This document shows positions 542-15,617 of a DNA stretch of 15,617 nt, piece by piece. Position 1 is the stretch's first letter. Each line of letters starts with the position of its first letter. The notes under the pieces were generated by a model. That model made no database searches. It saw nothing but the letters and a program-made list of their open reading frames with translations, and had not been told where the DNA came from. The DNA lies in UHGV virus genome UHGV-2204636. One strand, given 5' to 3'. Position numbers and translations under genes: made by a program. The stretch comes from a virus.

Positions 542-1579
542 TTAACGCTTATCCGCCACCAGTTTGAGCGCGTGTTCCAGCACATTAATGTCTGCACCCG
601 CTTTATGGGCATTTTCACTTAAATAACGCCGCCACTGCCGCGCGCCAGGAATACCCTGGAACAAGCCCAACATATGCCGGGTAATATGACCGAGATACGT
701 CCCCTGGCTGAGTTCACGCTCAATGTACGGATACATGGCGCGCACTACCGCCACCGGATCGGCATCGATATCCGAGGAACCAAAGATCTCCCGGTCTACC
801 GCCGCCAGAATACCCGGATTCTGATACGCCTCGCGCCCGACCATCACGCCATCCATATGTTGCAGGTGTGCTTTGGCCTCTTCCAGCGACTTGATACCAC
901 CGTTAATCGACATTGTCAGATGCGGAAAGTCACGCTTCAGTTGATACACACGCGGATAATCGAGCGGCGGGATCTCACGGTTTTCTTTCGGACTTAACCC
1001 CGAAAGCCAGGCTTTACGTGCATGGATGATGAACATCTCACACTCGCCTTTGCCGGAAACGGTGTTGATGAAATCGCAGAGAAATTCATAGCTGTCCTGG
1101 TCGTCGATGCCAATACGCGTTTTCACCGTCACCGGAATCGACACCACATCGCGCATCGCTTTCACGCAGTCGGCAACCAGCTGCGCATTACCCATCAGAC
1201 ACGCACCAAACATGCCGTTCTGCACCCGGTCAGACGGGCAGCCGACATTCAGGTTGATCTCATCATATCCACGCGCTTCTGCCAGCTTCGCACACTGTGC
1301 CAGCGCCGCCGGATCGCTACCGCCGAGTTGCAACGCTACCGGATGTTCTTCTTCACTGTACGCCAGGTAATCACCTTTACCGTGAATAATCGCCCCTGTG
1401 GTCACCATTTCGGTATACAGCAACGTATTGCGGGAAAGCAGACGCAAGAAATAGCGGCAATGTCTGTCCGTCCAGTCGAGCATAGGAGCAATGCTAAACC
1501 GAGAATTCCAGTAAACACCAGTTTTTTCAGGCATCACGCTGGTTTGATTAATTTTTTGTGTTTCATGATTATCGTGCAT
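542..1579 (-). CDS. dusA: tRNA-dihydrouridine synthase A; 5' end probably supplied by the integrated element; alternative start at 1534 (MPEKTG...)
   Basis: 345-aa ORF with the Dus TIM-barrel hallmarks ([31 protein letters not shown]); matches E. coli DusA as I recall it. No strong SD before either candidate start. Confidence 0.9.
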
Positions 1580-1611
1580 TTTTGAACATTTCAGGCTATT
1601 TTTCTCGCGTT

Positions 1612-1648
1612 AGGTTCCCGCACAGGTTCCCACGTTTTATGGGAACCC
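1612..1648. promoter_or_regulatory. Three GGTTCCC(A/G) motifs in the dusA-int divergent intergenic region: two direct copies plus an 8-bp inverted repeat GGTTCCCA-N7-TGGGAACC
   Basis: Motif at 1614-1620, 1626-1632 and inverted at 1641-1647, between the divergent dusA and integrase starts; candidate operator or recombinase/RDF binding sites. Confidence 0.3.
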
Positions 1649-1667: not shown

Positions 1668-2765
1668 ATGGCGTACTATAACATAGAGAAACGACTAAAA
1701 TCCGATGGCACACCACGCTATCGCTGTAATGTGATTATCAAAGAAAAAGGTGTTATCACTTACAGGGAAAGCAAAACATTCCCTAAACATGCTCATGCCA
1801 AAACATGGGGCACACAGAAAGTGATGGAATTAGATCTATATGGCATTCCATCATCAAATGCAGTTGACGGACTTACAGTCCGTGACTTACTACACAAATA
1901 TTTAAATGACCCAAATGCCGGAGGTAAAGCAGGCCGTACTAAAAGATATGTGCTGGAACTGCTTATGGATAGTGACATCTCCGCGATCAAACTATCTGAA
2001 CTGACAGAAAATGACGTAATTGAACATTGCAGGCTAAGAAACAACGCTGGTGCAGGTCCTGCAACAGTCAGCCACGATGTTAGTTATCTTGGCAGTGTTC
2101 TGGATGCGGCCAAACCTGTATACGGAATTAATTACACATCAAACCCGGCGAAAAGCGCTCGCCCATATCTACTTAAACTTGGTTTGATTGGTAAATCAAA
2201 CCGTCGTAATCGTAGACCAGCATCTGATGAACTGGACATGCTCATTGCAGGCCTTCAACAACGATCTACTCATAAATGCTCAAAAATTCCGTTCGTTGAT
2301 ATCCTCAAATTTTCTGTATGGTCCTGTATGCGAATCGGAGAAGTATGCCGGTTACGATGGGAAGATCTCGACCAGGAACAAAAATCTATACTCGTAAGAG
2401 ACAGGAAAGATCCACGCAAAAAGGAAGGTAACCACATGAAAGTAGCCTTGCTTGGGGAAGCCTGGGATATCGTCCAACGACAGCCCCAAAAATCGGAATT
2501 CATTTTTCCATATAACAGCACTTCTGTTACTGCGGGATTTCAGAGAGTAAGAAGCAAATTAGGTATTAAGGATCTGCGATACCATGATTTGCGTAGAGAA
2601 GGGGCAAGTCGCTTATTTGAGGCTGGTTTTAGTATTGAGGAAGTCGCCCAAGTTACAGGGCATCGTTCATTAAACGTGCTATGGCAGGTATATACCGAAC
2701 TGTATCCGAAATCTTTACATAATCGTTTTGAAGAGCTCCAAAGGAGCAGAAATAAGACCTCTTGA
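1668..2765 (+). CDS. int: Tyrosine recombinase / phage integrase, in the position of a dusA-associated integrase
   Basis: 365-aa ORF with a GAGG SD; C-terminal catalytic signature (...RYHDLRREGASR... GHRSLNVLWQVY) typical of tyrosine integrases; divergent from and adjacent to the 5' end of dusA. Confidence 0.9.
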   Translation: MAYYNIEKRLKSDGTPRYRCNVIIKEKGVITYRESKTFPKHAHAKTWGTQKVMELDLYGIPSSNAVDGLTVRDLLHKYLNDPNAGGKAGRTKRYVLELLMDSDISAIKLSELTENDVIEHCRLRNNAGAGPATVSHDVSYLGSVLDAAKPVYGINYTSNPAKSARPYLLKLGLIGKSNRRNRRPASDELDMLIAGLQQRSTHKCSKIPFVDILKFSVWSCMRIGEVCRLRWEDLDQEQKSILVRDRKDPRKKEGNHMKVALLGEAWDIVQRQPQKSEFIFPYNSTSVTAGFQRVRSKLGIKDLRYHDLRREGASRLFEAGFSIEEVAQVTGHRSLNVLWQVYTELYPKSLHNRFEELQRSRNKTS

Positions 2766-2826: not shown

Positions 2827-3075
2827 ATGCGTATTGAAATCTGCATAGCCAAAGAAAAAATGACTAAAATGCCAACCGGTGCTGTGGATGCGTTAAAGGA
2901 AGAATTAACCCGACGCATCAGTAAGCGTTATGACGATGTTGAGGTGTTAGTAAAAGCCACCAGCAATGATGGCCTTTCTGTTACACGCACCGCAGATAAG
3001 GATTCTGCAAAAACTTTTGTTCAGGAGACTCTGAAAGATACCTGGGAATCTGCTGACGAGTGGTTTGTTCACTAA
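2827..3075 (+). CDS. DinI-family damage-inducible protein (prophage DinI-like)
   Basis: 82-aa product [11 protein letters not shown]...[16 protein letters not shown] aligns by eye with E. coli DinI (MRIEVTIAK...ETWESADDWFV); strong SD; preceded by a LexA box. Confidence 0.85.
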
Positions 3076-3423: not shown

Positions 3424-4119
3424 ATGAAAAAGGAAATACTCAAGGCTCTTTGCCCTACATGCGGTGGGTTACGTAACTGCACTGTGCATGGGAAGCTAAC
3501 CACTAGCTGGGAGGATTCCCAATATCCAGTTTATGGGTACCATTACCATCACCTACTCCAATGCAATGGCTGTGATACTGTCTTCTATCACCACAACGAA
3601 CACTTCAGTGAGCATACTACCCACGAATATCGTGATGGTGAATTTGTAGAAACGCCTATAGATATGATCACTACCTATCCTGCCGCTGAAACATTTCAAG
3701 CTCCGATATGGTTATCCAAGCTTGAATCAGTTGATCGTCAGCTCTTTCAAATATTTAATGAAATGTATTCTTCATATACTTCTGACCATTTCATTCTTTC
3801 GTCCATCGGTTTACGGACGATTTTTGATCGAACTGCTGAACTGTTACAAATTCACCCCGGTTTGCCGCTTGGTGAAAAAGTTGAAAAATTAAAACAAGAT
3901 GGAGTCATAGGCGACACTGAGGCATGCGTTATATCTTCAGTAATTGATGCAGGAAACGCCGCCGCACATCGCAGTTGGAGCCCGAATAAAAGTGAGTTCG
4001 AACAAATGCTAGAAGCTATAGAAAGTTTTGTCCAAAGAACTATCTTGGGCAAAAAATCACTTGAACATATAACCAAACAACTCCCACCTCGGGTTACAAG
4101 ACCTAAAAATAGTGCATAA
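3424..4119 (+). CDS. Hypothetical protein: N-terminal 4-Cys zinc ribbon (CPTC...CNGC) plus C-terminal DUF4145/HEPN-like helical domain; candidate defence or abortive-infection cargo gene
   Basis: 231-aa ORF, visibly AT-richer than the flanking tail genes; CxxC-N32-CxxC plus a His-rich stretch at the N-terminus; C-terminal LGEKVEKLKQDGVI...IDAGNAAAHRS resembles the conserved core of DUF4145 as I recall it (unverified). Confidence 0.75.
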   Translation: MKKEILKALCPTCGGLRNCTVHGKLTTSWEDSQYPVYGYHYHHLLQCNGCDTVFYHHNEHFSEHTTHEYRDGEFVETPIDMITTYPAAETFQAPIWLSKLESVDRQLFQIFNEMYSSYTSDHFILSSIGLRTIFDRTAELLQIHPGLPLGEKVEKLKQDGVIGDTEACVISSVIDAGNAAAHRSWSPNKSEFEQMLEAIESFVQRTILGKKSLEHITKQLPPRVTRPKNSA

Positions 4120-4731: not shown

Positions 4732-5103
4732 ATGCCATTTGCGCGCTATTTCTGCATTTTCATAAACGTTGGTTTGGGAGAAGCGGCAAAACGGAATGTG
4801 GGAACAGGGAAAAATCAGATACCTGATATGTCAGCTTATTCATCAGGATCTGGCTGGCAAAAATTGCCTGATGGTTCAATTGAACAGTGGGGAAGAATTA
4901 ATTTCCCGTATAACGCCGCGGCGGTATCTACAAATGTGACTTTCACCATTCCTTTTACGCAGGAGCCAGACGTAGTGATTGTATATGACGGCGGTTTTGG
5001 TGGTGGGAATATGTGGGGCGCAACTAACTGGACGAAAACAGGTTTCGTTGCTCATTGTAACTATGGCTTTGAAGGTGGAGCCTTCTACGCGAAAGGGCGT
5101 TAA
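4732..5103 (+). CDS. Silent alternative tail-fibre C-terminal cassette (Sv'-like); the ATG at 4732 is probably fortuitous, the cassette is expressed only after inversion
   Basis: ORF shares the VGLGE junction with the expressed fibre gene at the crossover site, then diverges (AAKRNVGTGKNQ...); no independent N-terminal fibre domain. Confidence 0.55.
   Translation: MPFARYFCIFINVGLGEAAKRNVGTGKNQIPDMSAYSSGSGWQKLPDGSIEQWGRINFPYNAAAVSTNVTFTIPFTQEPDVVIVYDGGFGGGNMWGATNWTKTGFVAHCNYGFEGGAFYAKGR
4757..4782. other. Invertase crossover site (gix/pix-like 26-bp imperfect palindrome), invertase-proximal copy
   Basis: TTTTCATAAACG-TT-GGTTTGGGAGAA; its reverse complement shares TTCTCCCAAACCAA with the site at 6573-6598; resembles hix/gix half-sites. 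Confidence 0.55.
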
Positions 5104-5105
5104 TT

Positions 5106-5546
5106 ATGAAATATTTGTATGTTGATAATCTGGCGTACCCTTATGCCCTCCAGTCTGTTTACGCTGCAAAAGGCCAATGGCCCGAAGGTAAAGGCGTGGA
5201 TATAGACGAAGCTATTTTCAGGGAATATTTCCATGATACGCCGCCTGACGGTAAGTACAGAATTACCGGAGACGATGGAATGCCAGCATGGGCAGATGTT
5301 CCACCGCCAACACGTGAAGAACAAATTGCATCAGCCGAAACTAAAAAGCAGCAATTGATTAATCAGGCCAACGATTATATGAACAGTAGACAATGGGCTG
5401 GTAAAGCGGCTATTGGTCGTCTGAAAGGTGAGGAACTGGCGCAATATAATTTGTGGCTGGATTATCTGGACGCACTGGAGCTGGTCGATACTTCCAGTGC
5501 ACCAGATATTGAATGGCCTACTCCTCCGGCAGTTCAGGCCAGATGA
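5106..5546 (+). CDS. Tail fibre assembly protein (Tfa / Mu U'-like), partner of the silent cassette
   Basis: 146-aa product with the conserved Tfa C-terminal motif (...NLWLDYLDALELVDTSSAPDIEWPTPP); immediately follows the cassette ORF. Confidence 0.85.
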   Translation: MKYLYVDNLAYPYALQSVYAAKGQWPEGKGVDIDEAIFREYFHDTPPDGKYRITGDDGMPAWADVPPPTREEQIASAETKKQQLINQANDYMNSRQWAGKAAIGRLKGEELAQYNLWLDYLDALELVDTSSAPDIEWPTPPAVQAR

Positions 5547-6120
5547 CATCCGGCGCGGTGCTGGTATCTGTTGCCGTCACCGCGTCAATGTAATCCAGCA
5601 CAGCGTTAAGTCGGGTTGTTTCTGCCTGCGTCAACTTCCGTCCGGCCTGTAATTTCAGCTGAATCAGACTAATGGAAGCCATTGCTGCATCAATCAGTGA
5701 CTGGCGCTGTGCTTCTGCTGCGTCTACTGCGGCACTATGCTGTGCCTCAGTATCCGTCACCCATTTCTCACCATCCCATTTATCGTATGGCGTTAACGGG
5801 GCGATAGTGGTTGTATTTTCGGGGTAATCACCCAGAGCTGTGATTTCTTTGGCGTCTCCCGTTTCGGTGTTATAGACGATTTCACCGCGATGGTCTGGCA
5901 CATATTCCCATGAGTTTAAATCTGCCGAACGGCAGATTGCATAACCAGCCTTATGTATACCAGGTTCATCCAGACAGGAATATGCCGGGATACCAACACC
6001 AACGGCAAGATATTCATTTGAAGTGGAAATATATTCCCGAGTTTCACCATCATAGCTATAGACGGTAATATCCCCCGCCTTCGTGGCAATAAGCTCGCTA
6101 TTTAATACAGCGTTATCCAT
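5518..6120 (-). CDS. Tail fibre assembly protein (Tfa / Mu U-like), partner of the expressed fibre
   Basis: 200-aa product with C-terminal ...LNAVLDYIDAVTATDTSTAPDVIWPELPEE motif; convergent with and overlapping the U'-like gene by 29 nt. Confidence 0.85.
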   Translation of the reverse strand: MDNAVLNSELIATKAGDITVYSYDGETREYISTSNEYLAVGVGIPAYSCLDEPGIHKAGYAICRSADLNSWEYVPDHRGEIVYNTETGDAKEITALGDYPENTTTIAPLTPYDKWDGEKWVTDTEAQHSAAVDAAEAQRQSLIDAAMASISLIQLKLQAGRKLTQAETTRLNAVLDYIDAVTATDTSTAPDVIWPELPEE

Positions 6121-6878
6121 TATTCAGCCCTCACGATAAAGTTAAATGCAATATTTCGCGCACGTGTTTCCGTTGATGTTCTGGCAACAAGTGATGCATC
6201 AAAATAATAATTCGCCTGTTTATATGTACCACCTATCGCAATTGGTGTGAGATTTGGTTGCACTATTGAAGAGGTAAATGCGCCGAAAGTATTATTATTT
6301 GTCCCCGTGGTCATATCAAAAAAGCTACCTGTAATATTTTGCAGCGTATCGCTCTGAGCACTCAATAACGCTCGCCCACTGTCCACTCCACGCCCATCAT
6401 CCCAGCCACGAATAAACTCACCCCGCAGATCTGGCAGCACAAGACCGGGGTAAACCAGTGCCAGCTTCGGATAATTTTTAGCTGCAAATGGAGCGCCGTT
6501 ACATTTCAGCCATCCTGTTGGTGGAGTGGCTAAAGGCCACGGAACAGGCACACCAACGGGTAATGCCGAACCTTCTCCCAAACCAAGATTTCCGAGAGCC
6601 GTTTTCACGGTGCCATCCGATTTGATATCGCCAAACGGATTTGAGCGACTCAGTAACAGCGCGTTTAGTGCTGTTAATAACTGGTTTTTTTTAGAAGGAT
6701 CAACATTAATACCGGCAGCGTTCAGGACAGTAATAAGCTCCGACTGCGCATCTCTGACAGCCCCCTGCACGTTATTCAGATGCTCAGCATCAACAATGGT
6801 CCCCAGCTCACCTGTGAGCGGATTACCATCATGGAAAAGATTATCCGGCGTCTGCACCGGTGGCATTAAGGGCCGCAT
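6120..6878 (-). CDS. Tail fibre protein (constant N-terminus about 6586-6878 plus currently expressed variable C-terminus 6120-6585)
   Basis: 252-aa ORF; start overlaps the stop of the upstream gene (TAATG); contains the crossover site at the GLGE codons. Confidence 0.85.
6573..6598. other. Invertase crossover site (26-bp imperfect palindrome) inside the tail fibre gene
   Basis: TTCTCCCAAACC-AA-GATTTCCGAGAG; inverted relative to the site at 4757-4782. Confidence 0.55.
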
Positions 6879-7450
6879 TATTCATTCTCCTGATATGCGA
6901 AGTAGCAAAATGTATGGGCTGGTTTGAGATCACGGAAGACGTCTTCAATAATCGGATCACCAAACGTTGTCAGGCGCTCACCTGCAGCTGAACTGCCTGA
7001 GCGAAAGCGATAGGATTGAGTTCCTGAGTTCTGAATATTGACGCGCCAGACCCAGATAATGTCTTCAACCCAGAGGCGATCACCGGCGCGGCCAACTCCC
7101 GCCCTGAAAGGTTGCGGTTCATCAATTGTGATGATGTAGCCAAGGTTGCTTGCCAACTGAGTAAAGTACGGAATACTGAGACCACCGACTTCAGCCAGTT
7201 TAGCCAGTACACGCTGCTGGCGTTGCTGGTATGTCGCACCTTCAGCAGGAGTAAGGTCCAGGACGCGTTCCCAGTCATACAAAAGGCTGCGTGCATAAAA
7301 TGGAGTAACTCCACCTTCAACAAGCCCTGCAGACGCATCGAGAGTCTCAAAAACACCTGATTCAGATCGCAATGATGCATCAAGCAGAGGCTGGCCCGGG
7401 CTGTACGAAACAAGTGGCAGCAGACGATTTAACAGCGTGAAGTAGCTCAT
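6878..7450 (-). CDS. Phage tail/baseplate protein, Mu gp48 / YmfQ (DUF2313)-like
   Basis: 190-aa ORF translationally coupled between the baseplate J-like gene and the fibre gene, the position occupied by gp48/YmfQ in Mu- and e14-type tails. Confidence 0.75.
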
Positions 7451-8514
7451 AGCAGCTCTACCTCAACGTTTCCTAATTTGAGCCATTCGACTTTCGTGGC
7501 ATCGATTATCGGTTGAATATTTGCCGATGGTGTAACGATGTCATAGTCGGTAATACCCGGAATTAGAGAAATCAATGTCCCCGCCTGGCTGCGAATAAAA
7601 GCCACTCCAGGCTCTCGGCGCGAGTCATCGTCCTCCAGCGTTCCGGCGACAGCCTGTTTGGCTGCTGCGAGGGTGATGCCCTCCAGTGATACCTTCACGA
7701 GGACGTCAAATGTACGGATGACAGGTATGAGCACCAGCGTGTTTTTTGCTGTAACAGGCCGGACATCGTCAATGTGAGCCTGCACCCTGTCGATCACATC
7801 CTGAGATGGCAGCCCACCTGCAGACGTGATCACAACATCAACGGTACCCGGCCCCCGCCGCAAAGGGTAAACATATGCGGCGGATACGCCTGATACCTCA
7901 AGCGCCCAGCGTTTGTAATCATATTTATTGCCGCCTGCAGGAGGTCGGCGGATGATTTCAAGCAGACGAGCAAGCAGCTCTGCATCCGTTTCCTCATCTG
8001 TTCCGCCAGTCATCAGGCCTACTGTCACTGTGCTGTCAAACCCATCAGGTGTTGTGGTCAGTGTGGCCGATGTGACGGAAGTGGTGTTACCAGTGGTTCC
8101 GGCCAGAGAAGACACTGCGTTTACCGATGATTTTCCATCTGACCCGACAATAATATCTTCGGTTGTTGTCCACGAAACACTGTCGCGTTTGAACACAAGA
8201 CCGGCAGCGGCCACCGCTCCTGGTTCGCCGGTAAACGTGGCAGGCCCGGAGGCGCTGTTGGCTGCTTTTTTGCTTAAACCACGTAAACGGGCGTGCAGAT
8301 AGAGGAATTCCGAATCAGCAGTATCCGGAAAGATCTGACGGACTATCCATCCCTGATGCTGATAAAGCCCCTCGGCAACACTGGCTACACTCGATGCCCG
8401 GATGTACCAGTCGCTGTCCGGGCCCAGCGTATCATCTGACAACTGCAGGAGATTTTTGATATCCCGCAGAATGTCAGTGCGTATTTGCGCGGCATTTTTG
8501 GTAATGAATGGCAT
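7447..8514 (-). CDS. Baseplate J-like protein (Mu gp47 / P2 gpJ family)
   Basis: 355-aa ORF; position and size fit baseplate J; 4-nt overlap with the downstream gene. Confidence 0.8.
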   Translation of the reverse strand: MPFITKNAAQIRTDILRDIKNLLQLSDDTLGPDSDWYIRASSVASVAEGLYQHQGWIVRQIFPDTADSEFLYLHARLRGLSKKAANSASGPATFTGEPGAVAAAGLVFKRDSVSWTTTEDIIVGSDGKSSVNAVSSLAGTTGNTTSVTSATLTTTPDGFDSTVTVGLMTGGTDEETDAELLARLLEIIRRPPAGGNKYDYKRWALEVSGVSAAYVYPLRRGPGTVDVVITSAGGLPSQDVIDRVQAHIDDVRPVTAKNTLVLIPVIRTFDVLVKVSLEGITLAAAKQAVAGTLEDDDSRREPGVAFIRSQAGTLISLIPGITDYDIVTPSANIQPIIDATKVEWLKLGNVEVELL

Positions 8515-8864
8515 CAGCTGACCTTAACCGGATATTTCCAGGTCTGCGGCGTTCCGCTCGCAGACGTGACGGTGATATGAAGCAGCATCCAGCCTTTTTG
8601 CCAGTGCTCTGCAGTAACGGAAATGGACTGGGCGCGACCGTCGTCAATAATCGGTTGCAGGGCCTGCCGCGAATACTGCACCGCGAGTTGTTGAACGCGA
8701 GACACATCCTTTTCGCGGCGGAGTGTATGCAAAAGAGAGCCCAGAGTTGGATCAGCCCACCATGAGCCAAGGGGCGTCATCAGCCGTAAGTAGACGGCAT
8801 TCGCTAAAGAGTCTGAGCTGTCGCCGGTATAATCGCCGGTCGTTGGATCAATCAACATTTCCAT
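8514..8864 (-). CDS. Baseplate protein, Mu gp46 / GP46-family (gpW/gp25-like)
   Basis: 116-aa ORF directly upstream of and overlapping the baseplate J-like gene; start region lies in a hairpin, so the exact start (8864 or 8858) is uncertain. Confidence 0.7.
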   Translation of the reverse strand: MEMLIDPTTGDYTGDSSDSLANAVYLRLMTPLGSWWADPTLGSLLHTLRREKDVSRVQQLAVQYSRQALQPIIDDGRAQSISVTAEHWQKGWMLLHITVTSASGTPQTWKYPVKVS

Positions 8865-8953
8865 GCCGTAATACTACCGGCATGGAAATTTAAATTATCG
8901 GTGAAGGGGTTCAGTGGGTATTGCTTTTGAAGGAGAACTTACGTTACCACAAA

Positions 8954-9559
8954 TTACATTTGCTGATTAGGTTTCTGCGTTGTGCCTGCATCACCGCCGT
9001 GGTCGTGGTCGTGACCGTCATAAGTCTCACGCATGGTGTTCAGCGTAGACTTGCCGTCAGCGACTTCATTACTGCCTTTCAGCAATGGTGTATCAAAATC
9101 TGCCCGCTCTGAGGCTGTGGTTTTATACGTTTTGGTATTAACAATATGTTGTTCGGTATTCACCGTGTGCTTTTTAGTATTAACGATATATTCATCGCAG
9201 TTTACTTCAATTATTTTTCCGCGCTTCAGAATAATGTTGCTTCCTTCATCCGAATAAATGGCAAGCTCACCACTTTTCAGGCTCTTTAGCCTGTATGCAG
9301 CGTGTTCCGTGGCAATCACCACGCTATGACTGGTGCGCCCGTTAAGCGGGAGCACAATGGCTTTAGTCCCCCTGGGCGGGTTGGATGTAAAACCGTACTG
9401 CTGAAACATCTCCACATCCTGCAAAGACTCAGTGGCCAGACCTTTACCCTGAATGGTCTGAATATCACCACCGCTGTTAACCCTTATTAAAACGCCCCTG
9501 AAGGCCTTTCTTATACGGTTTAACGCCGTGTTAATACGAGAGTCAATTTTGTTCCACAT
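8954..9559 (-). CDS. Baseplate assembly protein V / spike (Mu gp45-like)
   Basis: 201-aa ORF following the hub gene; His/Asp-rich C-terminal tip (DGHDHDHGGD) typical of spike proteins. Confidence 0.75.
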   Translation of the reverse strand: MWNKIDSRINTALNRIRKAFRGVLIRVNSGGDIQTIQGKGLATESLQDVEMFQQYGFTSNPPRGTKAIVLPLNGRTSHSVVIATEHAAYRLKSLKSGELAIYSDEGSNIILKRGKIIEVNCDEYIVNTKKHTVNTEQHIVNTKTYKTTASERADFDTPLLKGSNEVADGKSTLNTMRETYDGHDHDHGGDAGTTQKPNQQM

Positions 9560-10760
9560 CGATAATCTCCAGCTCTTTATTTACTTTGGCGCGACGCTTA
9601 CGTGATTTGCGTTTTTTCGGATAAGCATCCGGTATCCATATTCCATCCTCTTTGAGCCGCAGGGTGGTAATGGTGTTGTCTGGACGACCACCTGAAAACT
9701 CTCTTCCCATGAGGAAGTAAATGTCATCAATGCCATGTGGCTCGCTTCGGACACGAATACGCTGGCCCGGTTGCCATAACTGACCGTTCTCCATGCGATG
9801 GCCTTTAACAATTACTGTCAGATCAAACCCGTTCAGACGGGCGTCAGCCATGGCCTTTCTCGCGCGATAATCAACCTGCGCCTGATTATCAGCATCACCA
9901 GCAACCATAATCTGCGGACGATAGAAAGGTACGGTACTGTCGCGAACGGTACTACGTAAGCCATGAAAGCCATTCTCTGCAGAGCCGGTGCTGTCATAAA
10001 TTGCGTCGGCATCATCATCGTCTTCAGCCTCAGCGCTCTGATCATCAACGTCAATAACTTCCAGTCTTCCTGACTTTTTCCCCTGGCCGTGTCCCTGTGC
10101 CAGCATTGTCAGTTCAGAGAACGCACCGGTAATGGATGACCGGTCACTGAGATCGAGGACATTATTTCCCCGACCGTCACGATTCAGAACAAGCGTGGCT
10201 ACAGGGTCTTTTGTGTAATCCGGCCCTCCAATTACCAGCGTGCCATCTGGCTCAAACCATGGCCATAACCCGCGTGCAGCAGCTGCACGCTCAAGGGTAT
10301 CCCACGCACGTTCTCCGGGCTCCACGCTGACCTTGTCATTACGCAGGGATGACTCAGCCTCGATGCGGATGTTCGTTATCCCCAGCGGTCTGACAACCTG
10401 GGCGATCACCTCTTCAAGACTGAGCTGGCGGGAGGTAAAAACGGGTGAAGCGCAGTCAACAAGCACGGCTGCACCATCGCGACCGGAAAGAGATAAAGAA
10501 ACCTGCTGACGGGATACCCGGCGCTGAACCACATCCACCCGACCGGACATGACAACATCATTACCCACCCTGACCAGCACCGGCACACCACGTTTAATGG
10601 CCGGAGGGAAAATACCATCAGGCAGCCCAAGCGTTACGCTCCATGCATCGGAGGGGATCAGAAAATCGGAGTCAATCTGATAGCGGCTCCATGCACTATG
10701 GATTTTGCCATCAATAACCAGGCTCACTGTATTCTGCGAATCTTTATCTTGAGTAGGCAT
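9543..10760 (-). CDS. Baseplate hub / tail protein (Mu gp44, phage late control D family)
   Basis: 405-aa ORF overlapping its neighbours by 17 nt on both sides; conserved position between the DNA-circularisation protein and gpV-like genes. Confidence 0.8.
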   Translation of the reverse strand: MPTQDKDSQNTVSLVIDGKIHSAWSRYQIDSDFLIPSDAWSVTLGLPDGIFPPAIKRGVPVLVRVGNDVVMSGRVDVVQRRVSRQQVSLSLSGRDGAAVLVDCASPVFTSRQLSLEEVIAQVVRPLGITNIRIEAESSLRNDKVSVEPGERAWDTLERAAAARGLWPWFEPDGTLVIGGPDYTKDPVATLVLNRDGRGNNVLDLSDRSSITGAFSELTMLAQGHGQGKKSGRLEVIDVDDQSAEAEDDDDADAIYDSTGSAENGFHGLRSTVRDSTVPFYRPQIMVAGDADNQAQVDYRARKAMADARLNGFDLTVIVKGHRMENGQLWQPGQRIRVRSEPHGIDDIYFLMGREFSGGRPDNTITTLRLKEDGIWIPDAYPKKRKSRKRRAKVNKELEIIDVEQN

Positions 10761-12075
10761 TCAGAACGTCACCGGCTTTGATATTGTTAGGATTACGTAG
10801 TGTCGGATTGAGACGCAGCAACTCGGCGGCGCGCGTGTAGTCCTCATACCACAGGTGGGCCAGCAAATGCAGGTTTGTGTCGGACAATACCACTCGCGTA
10901 GTCAGTGGTGGTCTGCTGGTAATAACCGCTGAGCCCAGCTCCTGAACGGTCAGGGCGATATCCTTGAGACCTTCAACCACGGGTTGCCAGGTCACGCCAC
11001 CCGGTGTTTCACCGGCGCTCACGTTTTGCGTATCGGCAGCAAAGGTGTCCCGCGTCTGGTCGATTGCCGTCTGAATGGCCGTCCTGGTGTCGTTGGTGAT
11101 CTGCTCAATATCGACTGGAGACAGAATATCGCTGATGCTGCTGTCACTGAGTATGTCGGAAGCATCAAGCGCCAGCTGGATTGCAACCTGGATTTTTACC
11201 GCCGTTACCAGCTCAGTAATATCCGAGGTTGATGAGCCTGCCGGAACAGCAACAGCAACAGTCTTTTGCCCTGTCACTATCTGCTGAGGTAATGCGGCCA
11301 CATCCTGCAGATTGTTACGGCCATTCTTCCAGTCGGCCATCACGATGCCCGCTGTACCGGAAACGTCTGAGGACTGTGAATAGCTTCCTGGGTTATTACT
11401 GACACTTGATTTGGACTGAAGCGACGTCAGACTCAGCGCACTCTGCAGGTCATTCATGAACGATTTTGGGTAATTAACAAAATCCGAGGTGGTACTGACA
11501 AATCCCGTCAGTTCCCCCTTAAGCACGGTCACCATATTCAGCGTCGTGGTTGCCAGCGATTTCGCTTTTTTCATCCACTTTTTCGCTGTACGCAGAGGCG
11601 AGAGAATATTGTCGATGGCCGTCTGGGCTTTCTCCAGAGCGGATTGCGCCTGGTTGAAAACGATATCAGCTTTCGACAGCGGGAAATCGCTGCCAAAGAA
11701 AGGCAGATTAAGTCCCCCCTGGATAAAGACCACTTCGACAACGCAGTAATCAACGTTCTCCGCTTCATGCGATGCCTGATACTCAATGCACTGCATGCCC
11801 GTCATGGAGCCGAAAACGGGATGAATTAATTCTGCGCTACCGCGAGTATCCAGTGCGGCCAGAAACGCCTGCAGCCGCACATCATAATCATCACCCCAGA
11901 AAAGGACTGTCATCCGCAGGTTACGAGGCTTGCGGCCAAGATCATCAACATCACCACCGTCGACATAGGGATACTCATACGTCGCAATGTCGCGACTGGC
12001 GCTGTCACGGGTATTAACCACATCAAAGCGGACGCCCCTGAATGAGGCATCCTGTAATGAATCTTCCCAGCTCAC
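10744..12075 (-). CDS. DNA circularisation protein (Mu gp43 / N-like)
   Basis: 443-aa ORF immediately downstream of the tape measure gene (4-nt overlap), the canonical position in Mu-like tails. Confidence 0.75.
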   Translation of the reverse strand: MSWEDSLQDASFRGVRFDVVNTRDSASRDIATYEYPYVDGGDVDDLGRKPRNLRMTVLFWGDDYDVRLQAFLAALDTRGSAELIHPVFGSMTGMQCIEYQASHEAENVDYCVVEVVFIQGGLNLPFFGSDFPLSKADIVFNQAQSALEKAQTAIDNILSPLRTAKKWMKKAKSLATTTLNMVTVLKGELTGFVSTTSDFVNYPKSFMNDLQSALSLTSLQSKSSVSNNPGSYSQSSDVSGTAGIVMADWKNGRNNLQDVAALPQQIVTGQKTVAVAVPAGSSTSDITELVTAVKIQVAIQLALDASDILSDSSISDILSPVDIEQITNDTRTAIQTAIDQTRDTFAADTQNVSAGETPGGVTWQPVVEGLKDIALTVQELGSAVITSRPPLTTRVVLSDTNLHLLAHLWYEDYTRAAELLRLNPTLRNPNNIKAGDVLNAYSR

Positions 12076-14213
12076 TGCGGGCCTCCTGTTGAGCCGCGAA
12101 CGGATTGTTCGCCGTTGTATTCATTAACAGCTGATGCAATTTCACGTCCGTCTAATACCAGCTTTGTGGTGAGGTTAATGGGCTGTGATTTTTGTTGCTG
12201 TTGGGGCAAAAGATAAGACGGCACGCCTGTTGTTGCTGGTGTGTTTTGCCCCATCGTGGCCGGAGAACTCCACCATGATTTGACCTCATCCACGACATCC
12301 AGCAATCCGGGGCGGGCTTTTACTGCATCCAGCATGCGTGCTGACTCACTGGAATAGTTGTCAACCTTAAGCCGCGCACGTGCATCAGCATCACCTCGCT
12401 CAACATGAACAAGTGGCGCATCCTGCATACCCTGATAGAGGGCCAGTGGGGCTAATACCTTGCCAGCTCCGCCACGAATAACGGACCAGGCACGCCCAAG
12501 AGCAGATCCCCCTGCAGTCGGCACTCCACCGCCAGGAGAACCAGGCATTTTTATTCCGCCGCCAGTAAGGAAGTTGAGCCCGGCAAAAGCTACAGCCGCC
12601 GCTGTCATGGCTTTAATGCCCGTGGTGGCACCTGAAATAGCAGTTGTTAATTCAGGATATTCTTTAGCGTAATCAGAAAGTTTTGACGTCAAATCACCAT
12701 ATAAATCGGCGACAGGTTTCATTGCATCCTGCTCAGAGAACATTTTCTCTGATTCAAATTGTTGTGATTTAAAATCATTAGTTGATGAGATCACATCATA
12801 TGAAGCAGCACCAGCGCCAACGGAATCACGCGTTCCTGAAATCTGCTCCTTAATGAAGTCTTTTTTCATTATGCTTGTTTTTAGTGCGGTACTGGCCTGC
12901 TGGTCAGCAACTATTTTCGATGTAATTGAGGAAACTATAATATCCAGTGAGGCAAGGATATCTTTCTCCTTGTCCGTCCCTTTAAATTTCGTAGCCTGAG
13001 CCCGTAATTTCTTCACTCGTGGGTCGGCTGAAACAATACCTGATACTGCATTGGTGAATGCATCAGAAGTATTTACGCCTGAAAGTCGCTGGTCAGCCAT
13101 ATAATCAGCATAGGCAAGCATCCTTCCGTCTTTAGTCCTGAATCTTTTATTTTTTAACGCATTCTGAGTGTCAGCACTGGTGTATTTATCAAGCAGGTTA
13201 TTAACGTTTGTTGATGCAGCGCTATTATCACCTGCTGTTTCAGCGTTAGCCTGTAGCATTGCGAGAATTACATCCAAATCTTTTAACCCTGACATACCTA
13301 CAGCGTTAGCTTTTGTCATGGTTAAAGGTAATGAACCAGCCATATCAGCAAGTTCATATTTACCATTCTCACCAGACCTGATGGTTTTATCAAATACCGC
13401 TGGCAAATCCTCAGCCTTTATATCAAAGTTCTTAATTGCACCAATAGCAATACGAGCAAGGTCATTAGGGTTTGCACCTGAGGCCGTAGCATAACGAGTA
13501 ATATCCGGCAGGATTTTTAATGCCGTTTTATCATCAAGACCACCTGCGAAAAGCGAATTAATAGTTTCCTGTGCAGCCTCCGGTGTTCCACCGCCATAAC
13601 GAACAGCCCCACGGATTGCATTATTGATCTCAGGTATTTTCTTAATACGGTCTGGCGCTGAGAGGTTGTTATAAGCGGTATTTGCAATCTCAGCATTACG
13701 CCGTTCGTAAGCCATCTGACGCTGAACCGGGTCTTTTATAATCATACCCGCAGCAGTTAACCCACCGGCTACTGCTGCCACGGTTGAACCTGCAGCACGG
13801 AATCGCTGCATGCGCGTCATTGAGTCATTGACGCCGCCAAGCTCAGTTCGCAGCGCTTTGACCCTGTCAGTCATGGCCCTGAAAGCCCGGTTCTGCTCAT
13901 TTGCGGACAGCATACCTGTGCGGGTAAGGCGATTATAGGCCGCCATGGTCTGCTGTATTTCGCGCTGTATTTCGCGCTCTGAGCGAATGCCAAGAGTTGC
14001 TCGCGCCGAACTGGCGCGACGGTATTCCTCAATCAGAGAACGGGAGGCACGAATCGCTGTGGTTGAGTTCTGCTGACGGGATTTCGCCAGCTCATCATCG
14101 GTTTTTTGCGCCGCTTTGGTATCCCGGCTGATGCCCTGGAGTGCCTGTTTAAGCACTTTGGAGCCGGTATCACGGGCAAGCAGCTGCAGCGCCAGTTGTA
14201 AGTTACGCGCCAT
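12072..14213 (-). CDS. Tail tape measure protein
   Basis: 713-aa ORF, Ala/Gly/Gln-rich and predicted helical, with a GGAG SD; preceded by the chaperone gene and its frameshift extension. Confidence 0.85.
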   Translation of the reverse strand: MARNLQLALQLLARDTGSKVLKQALQGISRDTKAAQKTDDELAKSRQQNSTTAIRASRSLIEEYRRASSARATLGIRSEREIQREIQQTMAAYNRLTRTGMLSANEQNRAFRAMTDRVKALRTELGGVNDSMTRMQRFRAAGSTVAAVAGGLTAAGMIIKDPVQRQMAYERRNAEIANTAYNNLSAPDRIKKIPEINNAIRGAVRYGGGTPEAAQETINSLFAGGLDDKTALKILPDITRYATASGANPNDLARIAIGAIKNFDIKAEDLPAVFDKTIRSGENGKYELADMAGSLPLTMTKANAVGMSGLKDLDVILAMLQANAETAGDNSAASTNVNNLLDKYTSADTQNALKNKRFRTKDGRMLAYADYMADQRLSGVNTSDAFTNAVSGIVSADPRVKKLRAQATKFKGTDKEKDILASLDIIVSSITSKIVADQQASTALKTSIMKKDFIKEQISGTRDSVGAGAASYDVISSTNDFKSQQFESEKMFSEQDAMKPVADLYGDLTSKLSDYAKEYPELTTAISGATTGIKAMTAAAVAFAGLNFLTGGGIKMPGSPGGGVPTAGGSALGRAWSVIRGGAGKVLAPLALYQGMQDAPLVHVERGDADARARLKVDNYSSESARMLDAVKARPGLLDVVDEVKSWWSSPATMGQNTPATTGVPSYLLPQQQQKSQPINLTTKLVLDGREIASAVNEYNGEQSVRGSTGGPQ

Positions 14214-14216
14214 GGA

Positions 14217-14740
14217 TTATCTCCGTTTGCCGACTTTCTTCCGGCGTTGCGATTTGACAGTGCGGGTTGTGCGGGTGGTAGTTTGCCCGGTTTTCTTTCC
14301 ATGTAACCGGGCAAGTGCTTCGGTGTAGCCGTCGAGTTCCGTTCGGGTCATGCTTCCGATTTGTTGTTCACTGATACCGTATCGCCCGAGGGCGAGGACG
14401 AGGGTTCGGTACCCGGTGAGCTTTTGTTCAAATCCATCCGCTTTTTTTTAATGGCTTCAATCTGAGCATCGATGAGATCGAAATCATCATCATTCAGCTC
14501 GTTAAGGAGCAGCTCCGCCGTAATTTCTTCCTTTGGCACATCTCCGAGGGCAGTAATCGCACACGCCATTACCGCAACACGGTAATACATGTTTGCGGCT
14601 GCGCCTTCGGTAGTGCCGCAGGCTTCATCGGTTGCCCGCAGCGCTTCAATGGTATCGCTCACCACAGGCAGCCTGACGGCAAAGTCAAAATGGACTTTAT
14701 CACCGTATTTAACGCCATATAAAAGCTGCTGCTTTTCCAT
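14217..14740 (-). CDS. Tail assembly chaperone, -1 frameshift-extended isoform (G-T / E+E' analogue)
   Basis: After the slippery site the -1 frame stays open for ~76 codons (ADGFEQKLTGYRTLVLALGRYGISEQQIGSMTRTELDGYTEALARLHGKK...KRR) and stops at 14217-14219, one codon before the tape measure ATG. Confidence 0.5.
14348..14740 (-). CDS. Tail assembly chaperone (lambda G / P2 E / Mu gp41 analogue), zero-frame product
   Basis: 130-aa acidic ORF between the tube and tape measure genes; contains an A AAA AAG slippery heptamer near its 3' end. Confidence 0.75.
   Translation of the reverse strand: MEKQQLLYGVKYGDKVHFDFAVRLPVVSDTIEALRATDEACGTTEGAAANMYYRVAVMACAITALGDVPKEEITAELLLNELNDDDFDLIDAQIEAIKKKRMDLNKSSPGTEPSSSPSGDTVSVNNKSEA
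14441..14447 (-). promoter_or_regulatory. Programmed -1 ribosomal frameshift slippery heptamer A AAA AAG
   Basis: Minus strand reads GCC ATT AAA AAA AAG CGG in the chaperone frame (dnaX-type heptamer). Confidence 0.5.
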
Positions 14741-15115
14741 TTATTCCTCCACCCGACGAAGCGCATTCATGGTGATATCGCGCTTCGCTTCGTTGTCGAC
14801 GGTATACTGAGCCCCGGCCTGAGTGCTGAAGCAGTCCAGGTAAGAAACACGTTTACCGCTGCTGTTCAGTGGATACTGGGTGATTTTCGCACCTTCAATA
14901 CCGCCCCAGTTCAGGTCGCCGGACTCAGGGATGACTACCGTAACGGTCAGCTGGATCTCTTCGATGCCACGGGAGAAGCCTTTGGCGCGGCCCGTTTTGT
15001 TCATCGTCTTCACAAGCTTTCGCCCGGTGGTCACATCTTCCTTGAGGTCGGTCACTTCAATTTCCTGGCCGTCGACTTCCATGACGATCGCGCCAACATA
15101 TTCTTCAAGAGCCAT
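14741..15115 (-). CDS. Tail tube protein (Mu gpM-like)
   Basis: 124-aa ORF between the sheath and chaperone genes; its stop abuts the chaperone start. Confidence 0.75.
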   Translation of the reverse strand: MALEEYVGAIVMEVDGQEIEVTDLKEDVTTGRKLVKTMNKTGRAKGFSRGIEEIQLTVTVVIPESGDLNWGGIEGAKITQYPLNSSGKRVSYLDCFSTQAGAQYTVDNEAKRDITMNALRRVEE

Positions 15116-15128
15116 TCTGGTTTACTCC

Positions 15129-15617
15129 TCAGAGCAGCAAATCAATTCGACCGGCAAAGACGTGCAGGCCATTCACAACATCCGCAGGAATGCGACCGTT
15201 CAACTGGTTAACATCCTGCAGATCGCGCTCAACAATAAGACCGTCTTTGTTGGCATCCACCTCCTCGACAATCTCCAGCTCCTCCAGCTTGTAAAGCACA
15301 TCAAGCAGTTCGCTGCGCACCTTCGGCGGCGTCCTTGAGCTGAGCTTATCGCGCGGGAATCGCAGAGCGATGCGTTCACGGCAGGCCTTGCGCACGTAGT
15401 CCAGCGTTCGGATGGTGGTGATATCCAGCAGCGCCACATCATCCACGCCCTGGGCGTTTTTGGTGTAGGTGCTGATAGCGCGAACGATCTGCACTTTGTC
15501 ACCGGGGCCAATCTCAAACGGCGTAAGACCATTACGCAGGGCGTTCTCCTGCTCGGTTCGCCCTGGCTGACTTTCCACTGCAGTCACATCCAGCGTGCTC
15601 ATCGCAAGGGTGTTCAG
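15129..15617 (-). CDS. Tail sheath protein, C-terminal part (gene continues beyond the window end)
   Basis: Reading frame open to the window edge (…LNTLAMSTLDVTA…); position upstream of the tube gene. Confidence 0.75.
   Translation of the reverse strand: MNTLAMSTLDVTAVESQPGRTEQENALRNGLTPFEIGPGDKVQIVRAISTYTKNAQGVDDVALLDITTIRTLDYVRKACRERIALRFPRDKLSSRTPPKVRSELLDVLYKLEELEIVEEVDANKDGLIVERDLQDVNQLNGRIPADVVNGLHVFAGRIDLLL

Follow-up and report, generated by a model that had tools for sequence, protein, structure and literature searches.

Few integrase families in Proteobacteria are as widespread as the DusA-associated integrases, which carry Stx phages, SGI1-like resistance islands and numerous further prophages. 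The integrases of Tn916 and Tn1549 are heterobivalent and possess an N-terminal arm-binding domain containing a three-stranded sheet. The arm-type sites of lambda Int are P1, P2 and P'1-P'3 (Landy reviews).

For the DusA elements, both the 21-bp semi-conserved core repeats and the recombination directionality factor (RDF) RdfN have been defined (Farrugia et al. 2015, PMC4482086; Durand et al. 2021, PMC8409611). A mini-element with attP and int only remains integrated in dusA and needs a supply of RdfN to excise, and a related island supplies a new, weaker dusA promoter (PMC8409611). The Int of the 97%-identical phage phi1720a-02 is needed for attP formation, and a 7-base core has been described for the same phage family (PMC6328086). 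In the KplE1 prophage, which uses IntS and TorI, the attL arm overlaps the int promoter and IntS represses its own promoter via the arm sites (Panis et al. 2010, PMC2951348). The word 'arm' is absent from the main texts of Farrugia 2015 (PMC4482086) and Durand 2021 (PMC8409611) and from the phi1720a-02 study (PMC6328086). Since the searchable literature describes no arm sites for DusA-associated integrases, the five outer attP sites reported below, their geometry and their covariation with the integrase are an addition to it.

The repeat cluster at the dusA junction

The window, by which we mean the whole 15,617-bp stretch of viral DNA that was analysed, carries dusA, encoding tRNA dihydrouridine synthase A (542-1579, minus strand; Pfam Dus, E=2e-104), and, divergent from it, the gene for a DusA-associated tyrosine integrase of 365 residues (int, 1668-2765, plus strand; Pfam Phage_integrase, E=8e-21). 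We aligned the K-12 attB, both prophage junctions of NZ_CP184839 (locus L001) and the attP of mEp460 and SKA5. The sole stretch identical in attB, attP and both junctions is 8 bp long and gives the crossover core at 1476-1483, which reads TCGAGCAT (ATGCTCGA on the dusA strand). The dusA gene is chimeric after integration: its codons 1-32 (1484-1579, minus strand) match the attP of free phage and not the K-12 attB, and the native 5' end has been displaced to the far prophage end (L001 7853-7957). From 1484 rightwards all of the sequence is phage DNA, namely the surrogate for dusA codons 1-32, which forms the bulk of the long, int-proximal arm between core and repeats, then an 88-bp gap with the repeats, and then int. 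Hence, with the core at 1476-1483, the repeats are phage DNA located 136-172 bp from it. With int divergent from dusA, a crossover in the 5' part of dusA, and one 5' end supplied and the other displaced, the element falls within the DusA-associated integrase family. The junction is of the E. coli dusA::prophage type, which is present in 728 of 5,426 complete genomes.

Several junctions elsewhere depart from this arrangement. Sixteen of them (L011, L013, L020 and 13 other IMG/VR loci, including L057) have the core TCAAGCAT in place of TCGAGCAT, a variant that is either a host polymorphism or a marker of the position of strand exchange. In L057 the phage side of the core carries the native-type dusA sequence CATTGGTGCAACGC, and the core of L038 reads TCTAACAT. 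In L033 (IMG/VR UViG_2558860274_000005) the sequence that meets this int arm about 190 bp upstream of int is not dusA (…GCCCAGCCACGCAT|AGGAGC…), suggesting that integration took place at a secondary site whose core is degenerate.

An earlier note on this DNA, made from its letters, had reported three copies of GGTTCCC within 37 bp, two direct and one inverted, between the divergent starts of int and dusA. Both parts of this description were confirmed, the copies by exact search and a repeat finder and their placement by the 88-bp intergenic gap from the dusA ATG (1579, minus strand) to the int ATG (1668, plus strand), which holds all three. The heptamers lie at 1613-1619 and 1625-1631 on the plus strand and at 1641-1647 on the minus strand, and the cluster region as a whole (1610-1649) reads ttAGGTTCCCgcacAGGTTCCCAcgttttaTGGGAACCcg. 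An exact search found no fourth copy in the 15,617 bp, and allowing one mismatch gave no extra copy close to the cluster.

The repeat finder returned a direct pair, AGGTTCCC, with a spacing of 12 bp, and a perfect inverted pair, GGTTCCCA/TGGGAACC, of 8 bp each with a spacer of 7 bp. We refer to the copies as R1, R2 and R3. R1 (AGGTTCCC, 1612-1619, plus strand) starts at +136 from the first base of the core and is here proposed as an arm-type site; R2 (AGGTTCCC, 1624-1631, plus strand) follows 12 bp, or about one helical turn, further on at +148; and the inverted R3 (TGGGAACCC, or GGGTTCCCA on the minus strand; 1640-1648) is at +165. R2 and R3 form the perfect 8-bp palindrome around the 7-bp spacer. 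From the end of R3 to the int ATG there are 20 bp, with a Shine-Dalgarno sequence, GAGG, at 1657-1660. Among 69 near-identical haplotypes of the E. coli type, all eight polymorphic positions fall outside the heptamers, a distribution that is not significant (P=0.10), and the spacer between R2 and R3 is the most polymorphic portion of the region.

Downstream, int is followed directly by a DinI-like gene (2827-3075) and then by a DUF4145 gene (3424-4119); the annotation of mEp460 places a promoter between int and dinI. The window matches NZ_CP184839 up to 4783 only, apart from an inverted block. This block, 5484-6586, matches the related prophage in inverted orientation at 93.7% identity (region 4732-6600; compare L001 43382-44484). 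Genes for tail fibres and tail-fibre assembly adjoin it on both strands, and at this place the related prophage has a gene for an invertase, frameshifted in NZ_CP184839; the block looks like an invertible host-range segment in the opposite state. From about 6.6 kb onwards (6600-15617) the tail and baseplate region has a different mosaic make-up. Among the complete E. coli genomes of the collection, none had a single location covering 80% of the window, and the best match for 6772-15617, at 93.8% identity, is at another locus.

Repeat copies in each attP arm, and motif covariation with the integrase

The earlier note had proposed a search for further copies at the other prophage end, and this search was positive in close relatives whose int/attP module is 98-100% identical. 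In the attP of mEp460 and SKA5, and likewise at the far L001 prophage junction, two copies lie 51 and 62 bp beyond the core with the sequence (C/G)(A/G)GGTTCCCaatAGG(C/A)TCCC and in the same orientation as R1 and R2. The full attP of mEp460 and SKA5 consequently contains five copies, at -62 and -51 on one side of the core and at +136, +148 and +165 (inverted) on the other. AGGYTCCC occurs five times in the 49.5 kb of L001, and four of these are inside the two att arms. Beyond the outer edge of the -62 copy (~1436 in L002 and L003), mEp460, SKA5 and the NZ_CP184839 prophage are no longer similar, which implies a boundary of a shared recombination module; the portable module appears, from this comparison, to end at the outermost arm site. 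In the same comparison the cargo between attP and the PrtN gene varies, with two small ORFs in one case and a Panacea-domain gene plus an ORF in the other. The qPCR primers used for the phi1720a-02 attP, CTTTGGATAGGTTCCCAATAGGC and GGGTTCCCATAAAACGTGGG (PMC6328086), anneal on the far-arm repeats and on R3/R2; the amplicon covers nearly all of the five-site attP, with R1 just outside it. The repeats beneath these primers are not discussed in that study (PMC6328086).

Across more distant elements the positions are retained and the motif changes. In six elements with integrases 55-98% identical to that of the window, copies are found at -62/-51, at +136/+148 and, in some, at +164, constant to within about 1 bp, with the motifs AGGTTCCC, AGCACCCC, AGGACACC, AGTCTCCC and AGTACCCC. 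The same holds for relatives with 52-70% integrase identity, in which site positions are kept to about 1 bp and the motif has changed. Examples come from free phage genomes whose integrases are 55-68% identical. Yersinia YeP2 has AGCACCCC at -61 and -50, with int-arm copies at +136, +148 and, inverted, +164. Morganella IME1369_02 has AGGACACC at -62 and AGCACCCC at -51, and its int arm carries copies at +136, +148 and +163 (inverted). In Salinivibrio SMHB1 the far arm has AGTCTCCC at -61 and the int arm copies at +136 and +147, and in a tectivirus-like prophage of Vibrio AGTACCCC is found at -51 with int-arm copies at +135 and +146. The position of R1 is occupied by the lineage-specific motif in the attP of YeP2, Morganella, SMHB1 and the Vibrio element (Vibrio PE). 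Klebsiella Kp4887-1 and Shewanella M16-3 each have a motif of their own, again on both arms.

We then counted repeat pairs upstream of int in 71 loci, each from a different species, with integrases 52-99% identical. A pair was defined as an 8-mer repeated with 0-1 mismatch at a spacing of 10-13 bp no more than 85 nt upstream of int. Such a pair was present in 61 of the 71 species-level loci (86%), compared with 7 of 284 control windows inside int (2.5%) and 11 of 198 further upstream (5.6%). The proximal direct copy lies 12-49 nt from the int ATG across lineages, and 12-20 nt from it where R3 is absent. An inverted third copy at +163 to +165 is found in mEp460, SKA5, YeP2 and Morganella and in about one third of 78 loci with the repeat pair; the Vibrio, Salinivibrio and Klebsiella-phage lineages lack it. 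The earlier note would have given up its interpretation had the motif been missing from related elements; sites at the same positions are instead near-universal among elements with DusA integrases. A scan of IMG/VR added little diversity, as nearly all matches were near-identical E. coli loci.

Different motif classes occur within one genus and even within one genome, so that a host factor is ruled out as the binding protein. Two DusA-type integrases per genome are present in Xenorhabdus hominickii (L112, L124), X. bakwenae (L123, L127) and X. lircayensis (L106, L122). In X. hominickii the motif is GTACACCA at L112 and AGCACCCC at L124, and this pair suggests that orthogonal Int/arm-site specificities operate in one cell.

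The AlphaFold2 (AF2) model of the integrase has a mean pLDDT of 85.8. It predicts an N-terminal domain of residues 1-58 (1668-1841, plus strand), our proposed arm-binding domain, with beta strands at 2-10, 16-26 and 29-38 and a helix at 41-58, at a pLDDT of about 90-95 both in the full-length model and when the domain was modelled alone. Next come a linker modelled with low confidence and the core-binding and catalytic domains, for which Foldseek gave its best matches to Tn1549 Int (E=1.5e-10); full-length lambda Int was also matched. Alignments to full-length lambda Int chains extended over 357-373 columns versus 289-297 for lambda Int(75-356); hence the N-terminal domains appear to be aligned as well. 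A fold search with residues 1-68 alone gave no direct structural match, and the same residues had no match in Pfam (E<=10), NCBIfam or a PDB profile search. Neither the lambda N-terminal domain nor the lambda site consensus has detectable sequence similarity to its counterpart here.

The motif follows this N-terminal domain. Motif similarity correlated with the identity of residues 1-58 when residues 70-350 were controlled for (partial r 0.51, permutation p<=0.0005), while the converse partial correlation, of residues 70-350 with the motif, was -0.15. At matched C-terminal identity, the N-terminal domain was shared at 79% in same-motif pairs versus 54% in different-motif pairs. As the repeats are no more than about 40 bp from the codons of this domain, part of the correlation may reflect linkage during mosaic exchange. 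Integrases starting MAYYNIEKRL go with AGG(T/C)TCCC, MAYYSIEKR with CAGCACCC, MAYYTI(D/S)KR with AGGACACC, MAYYNI(V/M)KRP with GTACACCA, MAHYIIEKR with CAGGATCC and MASFTVEKRK with GTATCCCA.

Possible roles of the repeats

These data are consistent with a model, which we consider likely, where the repeats are the arm-type (accessory) sites of a heterobivalent, lambda-like DusA-associated integrase. Two tandem sites (-62 and -51) occupy the short far arm, and the tandem +136 and +148 sites together with the inverted +165 site occupy the long arm, which also carries the substitute 5' end that the phage provides for dusA. The N-terminal sheet/helix domain of Int would bind the arm sites, with the core-binding and catalytic domains holding the TCGAGCAT core in dusA, and Int would in this way bridge arms and core to give an intasome of fixed geometry, as lambda Int does on P1/P2 and P'1-P'3. 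Following integration, R1-R3 stay on the long arm beside int, and the other two sites would be found at the far prophage end. The earlier note had left three options, namely integrase arm-type sites, a site for an RDF or excisionase, and a repressor operator. The far-arm copies and the covariation with the N-terminal domain speak for the first of these, and an operator for a host repressor or LexA is disfavoured by motifs that differ within a genus or genome.

The protein bound might alternatively be RdfN, a PrtN-family factor that would bend the arms for excision. RdfN is the experimentally shown RDF of dusA-specific elements (PMC8409611) and is encoded near their far end. We found an RdfN/PrtN gene in all eight elements that were checked (the E. 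coli prophage, mEp460, YeP2, Morganella, Vibrio PE, SMHB1, Kp4887-1 and ZY1, of which SMHB1 and ZY1 are P2-like), through PF11112 in five (E=1e-19 to 1e-24), tblastn in SMHB1 and Kp4887-1, and annotation in ZY1; RdfN would therefore be expected to co-vary with the element too. Tandem direct repeats at helical spacing are also a typical pattern for RDF sites, the X1/X1.5/X2 sites of lambda Xis being an example. Characterised RDFs, however, bind one arm, between the arm sites and the core, whereas the copies here are on both arms and are the outermost conserved elements of attP. Moreover the motif class tracks the N-terminal domain of Int specifically. In a comparison of six phages (15 pairs, underpowered), motif similarity had a correlation of 0.03 with RdfN identity versus 0.22 with N-domain identity. 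Binding by RdfN would also leave the conserved N-terminal domain of Int with no candidate target in attP. Since the sites occupy the outer ends of attP in both arms, since the five are split 2 + 3 in a lambda-like manner, and since the conserved N-terminal domain would otherwise lack a target, we infer that Int rather than RdfN binds them, and regard RdfN sites as unlikely.

Explanations confined to the int-proximal cluster fare less well. The R2/R3 palindrome has features of an operator for a dimeric phage or host regulator (CI-like, LexA or similar) with no relation to recombination: its two 8-bp halves are perfectly inverted and 7 bp apart, it lies between divergent genes with int starting 20 bp away, and a DinI-like, SOS-related gene lies downstream of int. 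Its half-site, however, is the motif of R1/R2 and of the two far-arm copies, found on the opposite side of the core at a distance of 200 bp, the direct pair is kept without the inverted copy in many lineages, and the spacer is where the region varies most, all of which makes such an operator improbable. No LexA box was seen in the cluster by eye, and a host regulator such as LexA is not supported, as the motif varies among elements of the same host genus or genome. It is still less probable that the palindrome acts as an RNA hairpin affecting translation or stability, in the 5' leader of int or an antisense dusA leader. The 8-bp R2/R3 stem does appear in the predicted minimum-free-energy fold of both strands, but the folding energies are unexceptional (z = -0.44 and -1.77), neither leader matches an Rfam family, R1 and the far-arm copies would be left unexplained, and the inverted copy is missing in many lineages. 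In several Xenorhabdus lineages the inverted copy is CAGGTCCCC against a direct copy of CAGCACCCC or CAGAACCCC, with central mismatches that would break the stem. With no Rfam family, unexceptional energies and a stem that is not conserved, we rejected the RNA explanation. As for a functionless repeat arisen by chance, finding a 7-mer three times in 15.6 kb is not unusual (at least three copies of GGTTCCC in 29 of 200 shuffles), and some 7-mer triplet cluster of this kind arises in about 6% of dinucleotide shuffles (18 of 300). Yet the cluster is the only site in the window where any 7-mer occurs three times, on either strand, inside 37 bp, and its position persists through motif turnover across some 70 species-level loci and in both attP arms, so that chance is a negligible explanation.

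If the repeats are arm-type sites of Int, they may also bear on expression of the two flanking genes, as the earlier note had proposed in suggesting that the cluster could couple int expression to a dusA promoter supplied by the phage. A sigma-70 scan of 1350-1900 gave no site on either strand, and no terminators were found in that interval; with the scan empty, no promoter could be assigned confidently. A speculative -10 for int, TATTTT (1597-1602, plus strand; low confidence), is in a T-rich block 10 bp upstream of R1, and no acceptable -35 was found for it. As judged by eye, this block is conserved upstream of int in Enterobacterales-type loci, and its other strand is the A-rich leader of dusA.

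The sole promoter-like element with comparative support is located inside the int start codons and outside the repeat cluster. It is a candidate extended -10 (TGnTATAGT) directed toward dusA, TATGTTATAGT, at 1675-1685 on the minus strand (also L004 4576-4590), in int codons 3-6, and it was not called by the sigma-70 scan. In 45 Enterobacterales-type loci the synonymous codons at this point are constrained: TAT is used at codon 4 in 35 of 41 (background 56%, p=5e-5); codon 5 has the form A-n-C, with serine encoded as AGC in 19 of 24 (background 18%, p=2e-10); and codon 6 is ATA, a rare isoleucine codon, in 37 of 43 (background 28%, p=2e-15). Codons 2, 3 and 9, unlike codons 4-6, vary freely. 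The region upstream of native K-12 dusA has TTATGGTATAGTAC at a similar distance. It is possible from this that TATGTTATAGT is a native-like dusA promoter that the phage supplies from within the start of int. If so, R3-R1 would be at about +20 to +55 of the dusA leader, which would give a concrete geometry for coupling int and dusA.

Because the cluster fills the gap, with R3 20 bp before the ATG, any protein bound to it must sit in the int promoter or leader. Bound there, Int would probably damp int transcription, as autoregulation, and perhaps, more speculatively, the phage-supplied dusA transcript as well. The cluster is probably also an operator in the leaders of int and dusA, and coupled expression of the two genes appears geometrically plausible. 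A more specific proposal places the cluster between non-canonical promoters that face each other, a weak int promoter just upstream of R1 and the dusA extended -10 in int codons 3-6; occupancy by Int would then set expression of int and dusA together and put dusA under the recombination state of the prophage. We regard this joint arrangement as doubtful.

In the excised circle (L001 47674 to 7957-9146), the phage-borne dusA' ORF and any promoter that drives it would point across attP towards the far-arm cargo, which is on the same strand and in L001 consists of a Panacea-domain gene and the next ORF. One promoter may in that case serve phage genes when the element is excised and dusA when it is integrated.

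Comparison with known systems

For work on these elements, the five-site geometry (-62, -51, +136, +148 and +165) would define a minimal functional attP of about 240 bp, and it would account for the exchange of the module between phages as one block bounded by the outer repeat. The lineage-specific motifs predict orthogonal Int/arm-site specificities, of potential use in integration vectors, and the arm-site geometry offers a simple means to delimit DusA elements in genomes. The repeats also mark the exact DNA where int and the rebuilt dusA could be co-regulated.

The closest parallel in site layout is with lambda. In both there are five short sites outside the core, split 2 + 3 over the two arms, with a tandem set about 50-80 bp out on the short arm and the others about 110-150 bp out on the long arm. 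Lambda Int also has a small, separate domain at its N-terminus, made of three beta strands and a helix, and a domain of this make-up is predicted here by AF2. The differences are that int adjoins the long arm here and P' in lambda; that the long arm here encodes a surrogate for the first 32 codons of a host gene; that the RDF here is of the PrtN family and is encoded across attP, whereas the lambda type has an adjacent xis gene; and that the N-terminal domain here has no detectable sequence relatives. The integrase has the same domain order as Tn1549 Int, with the difference that the solved Tn1549 constructs do not include the arm domain.

KplE1 provides a comparison for the position of the sites relative to int. 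In both cases int abuts the att region, sites for a recombination protein would lie in the promoter or leader of int, and int and the RDF gene share no promoter. In contrast to KplE1, autoregulation of int is here only inferred, with no canonical promoter predicted, and the sites are also in the leader of a host gene, dusA, which the element rebuilds. With the DusA elements described previously, the locus shares an int divergent from dusA, a crossover in the conserved 5' part of dusA, a new 5' end and promoter, and a PrtN-like RdfN. Collectively, arm-type sites are of a familiar kind and their proposed placement for DusA-associated integrases is new, a result that is ordinary in principle and useful in detail.
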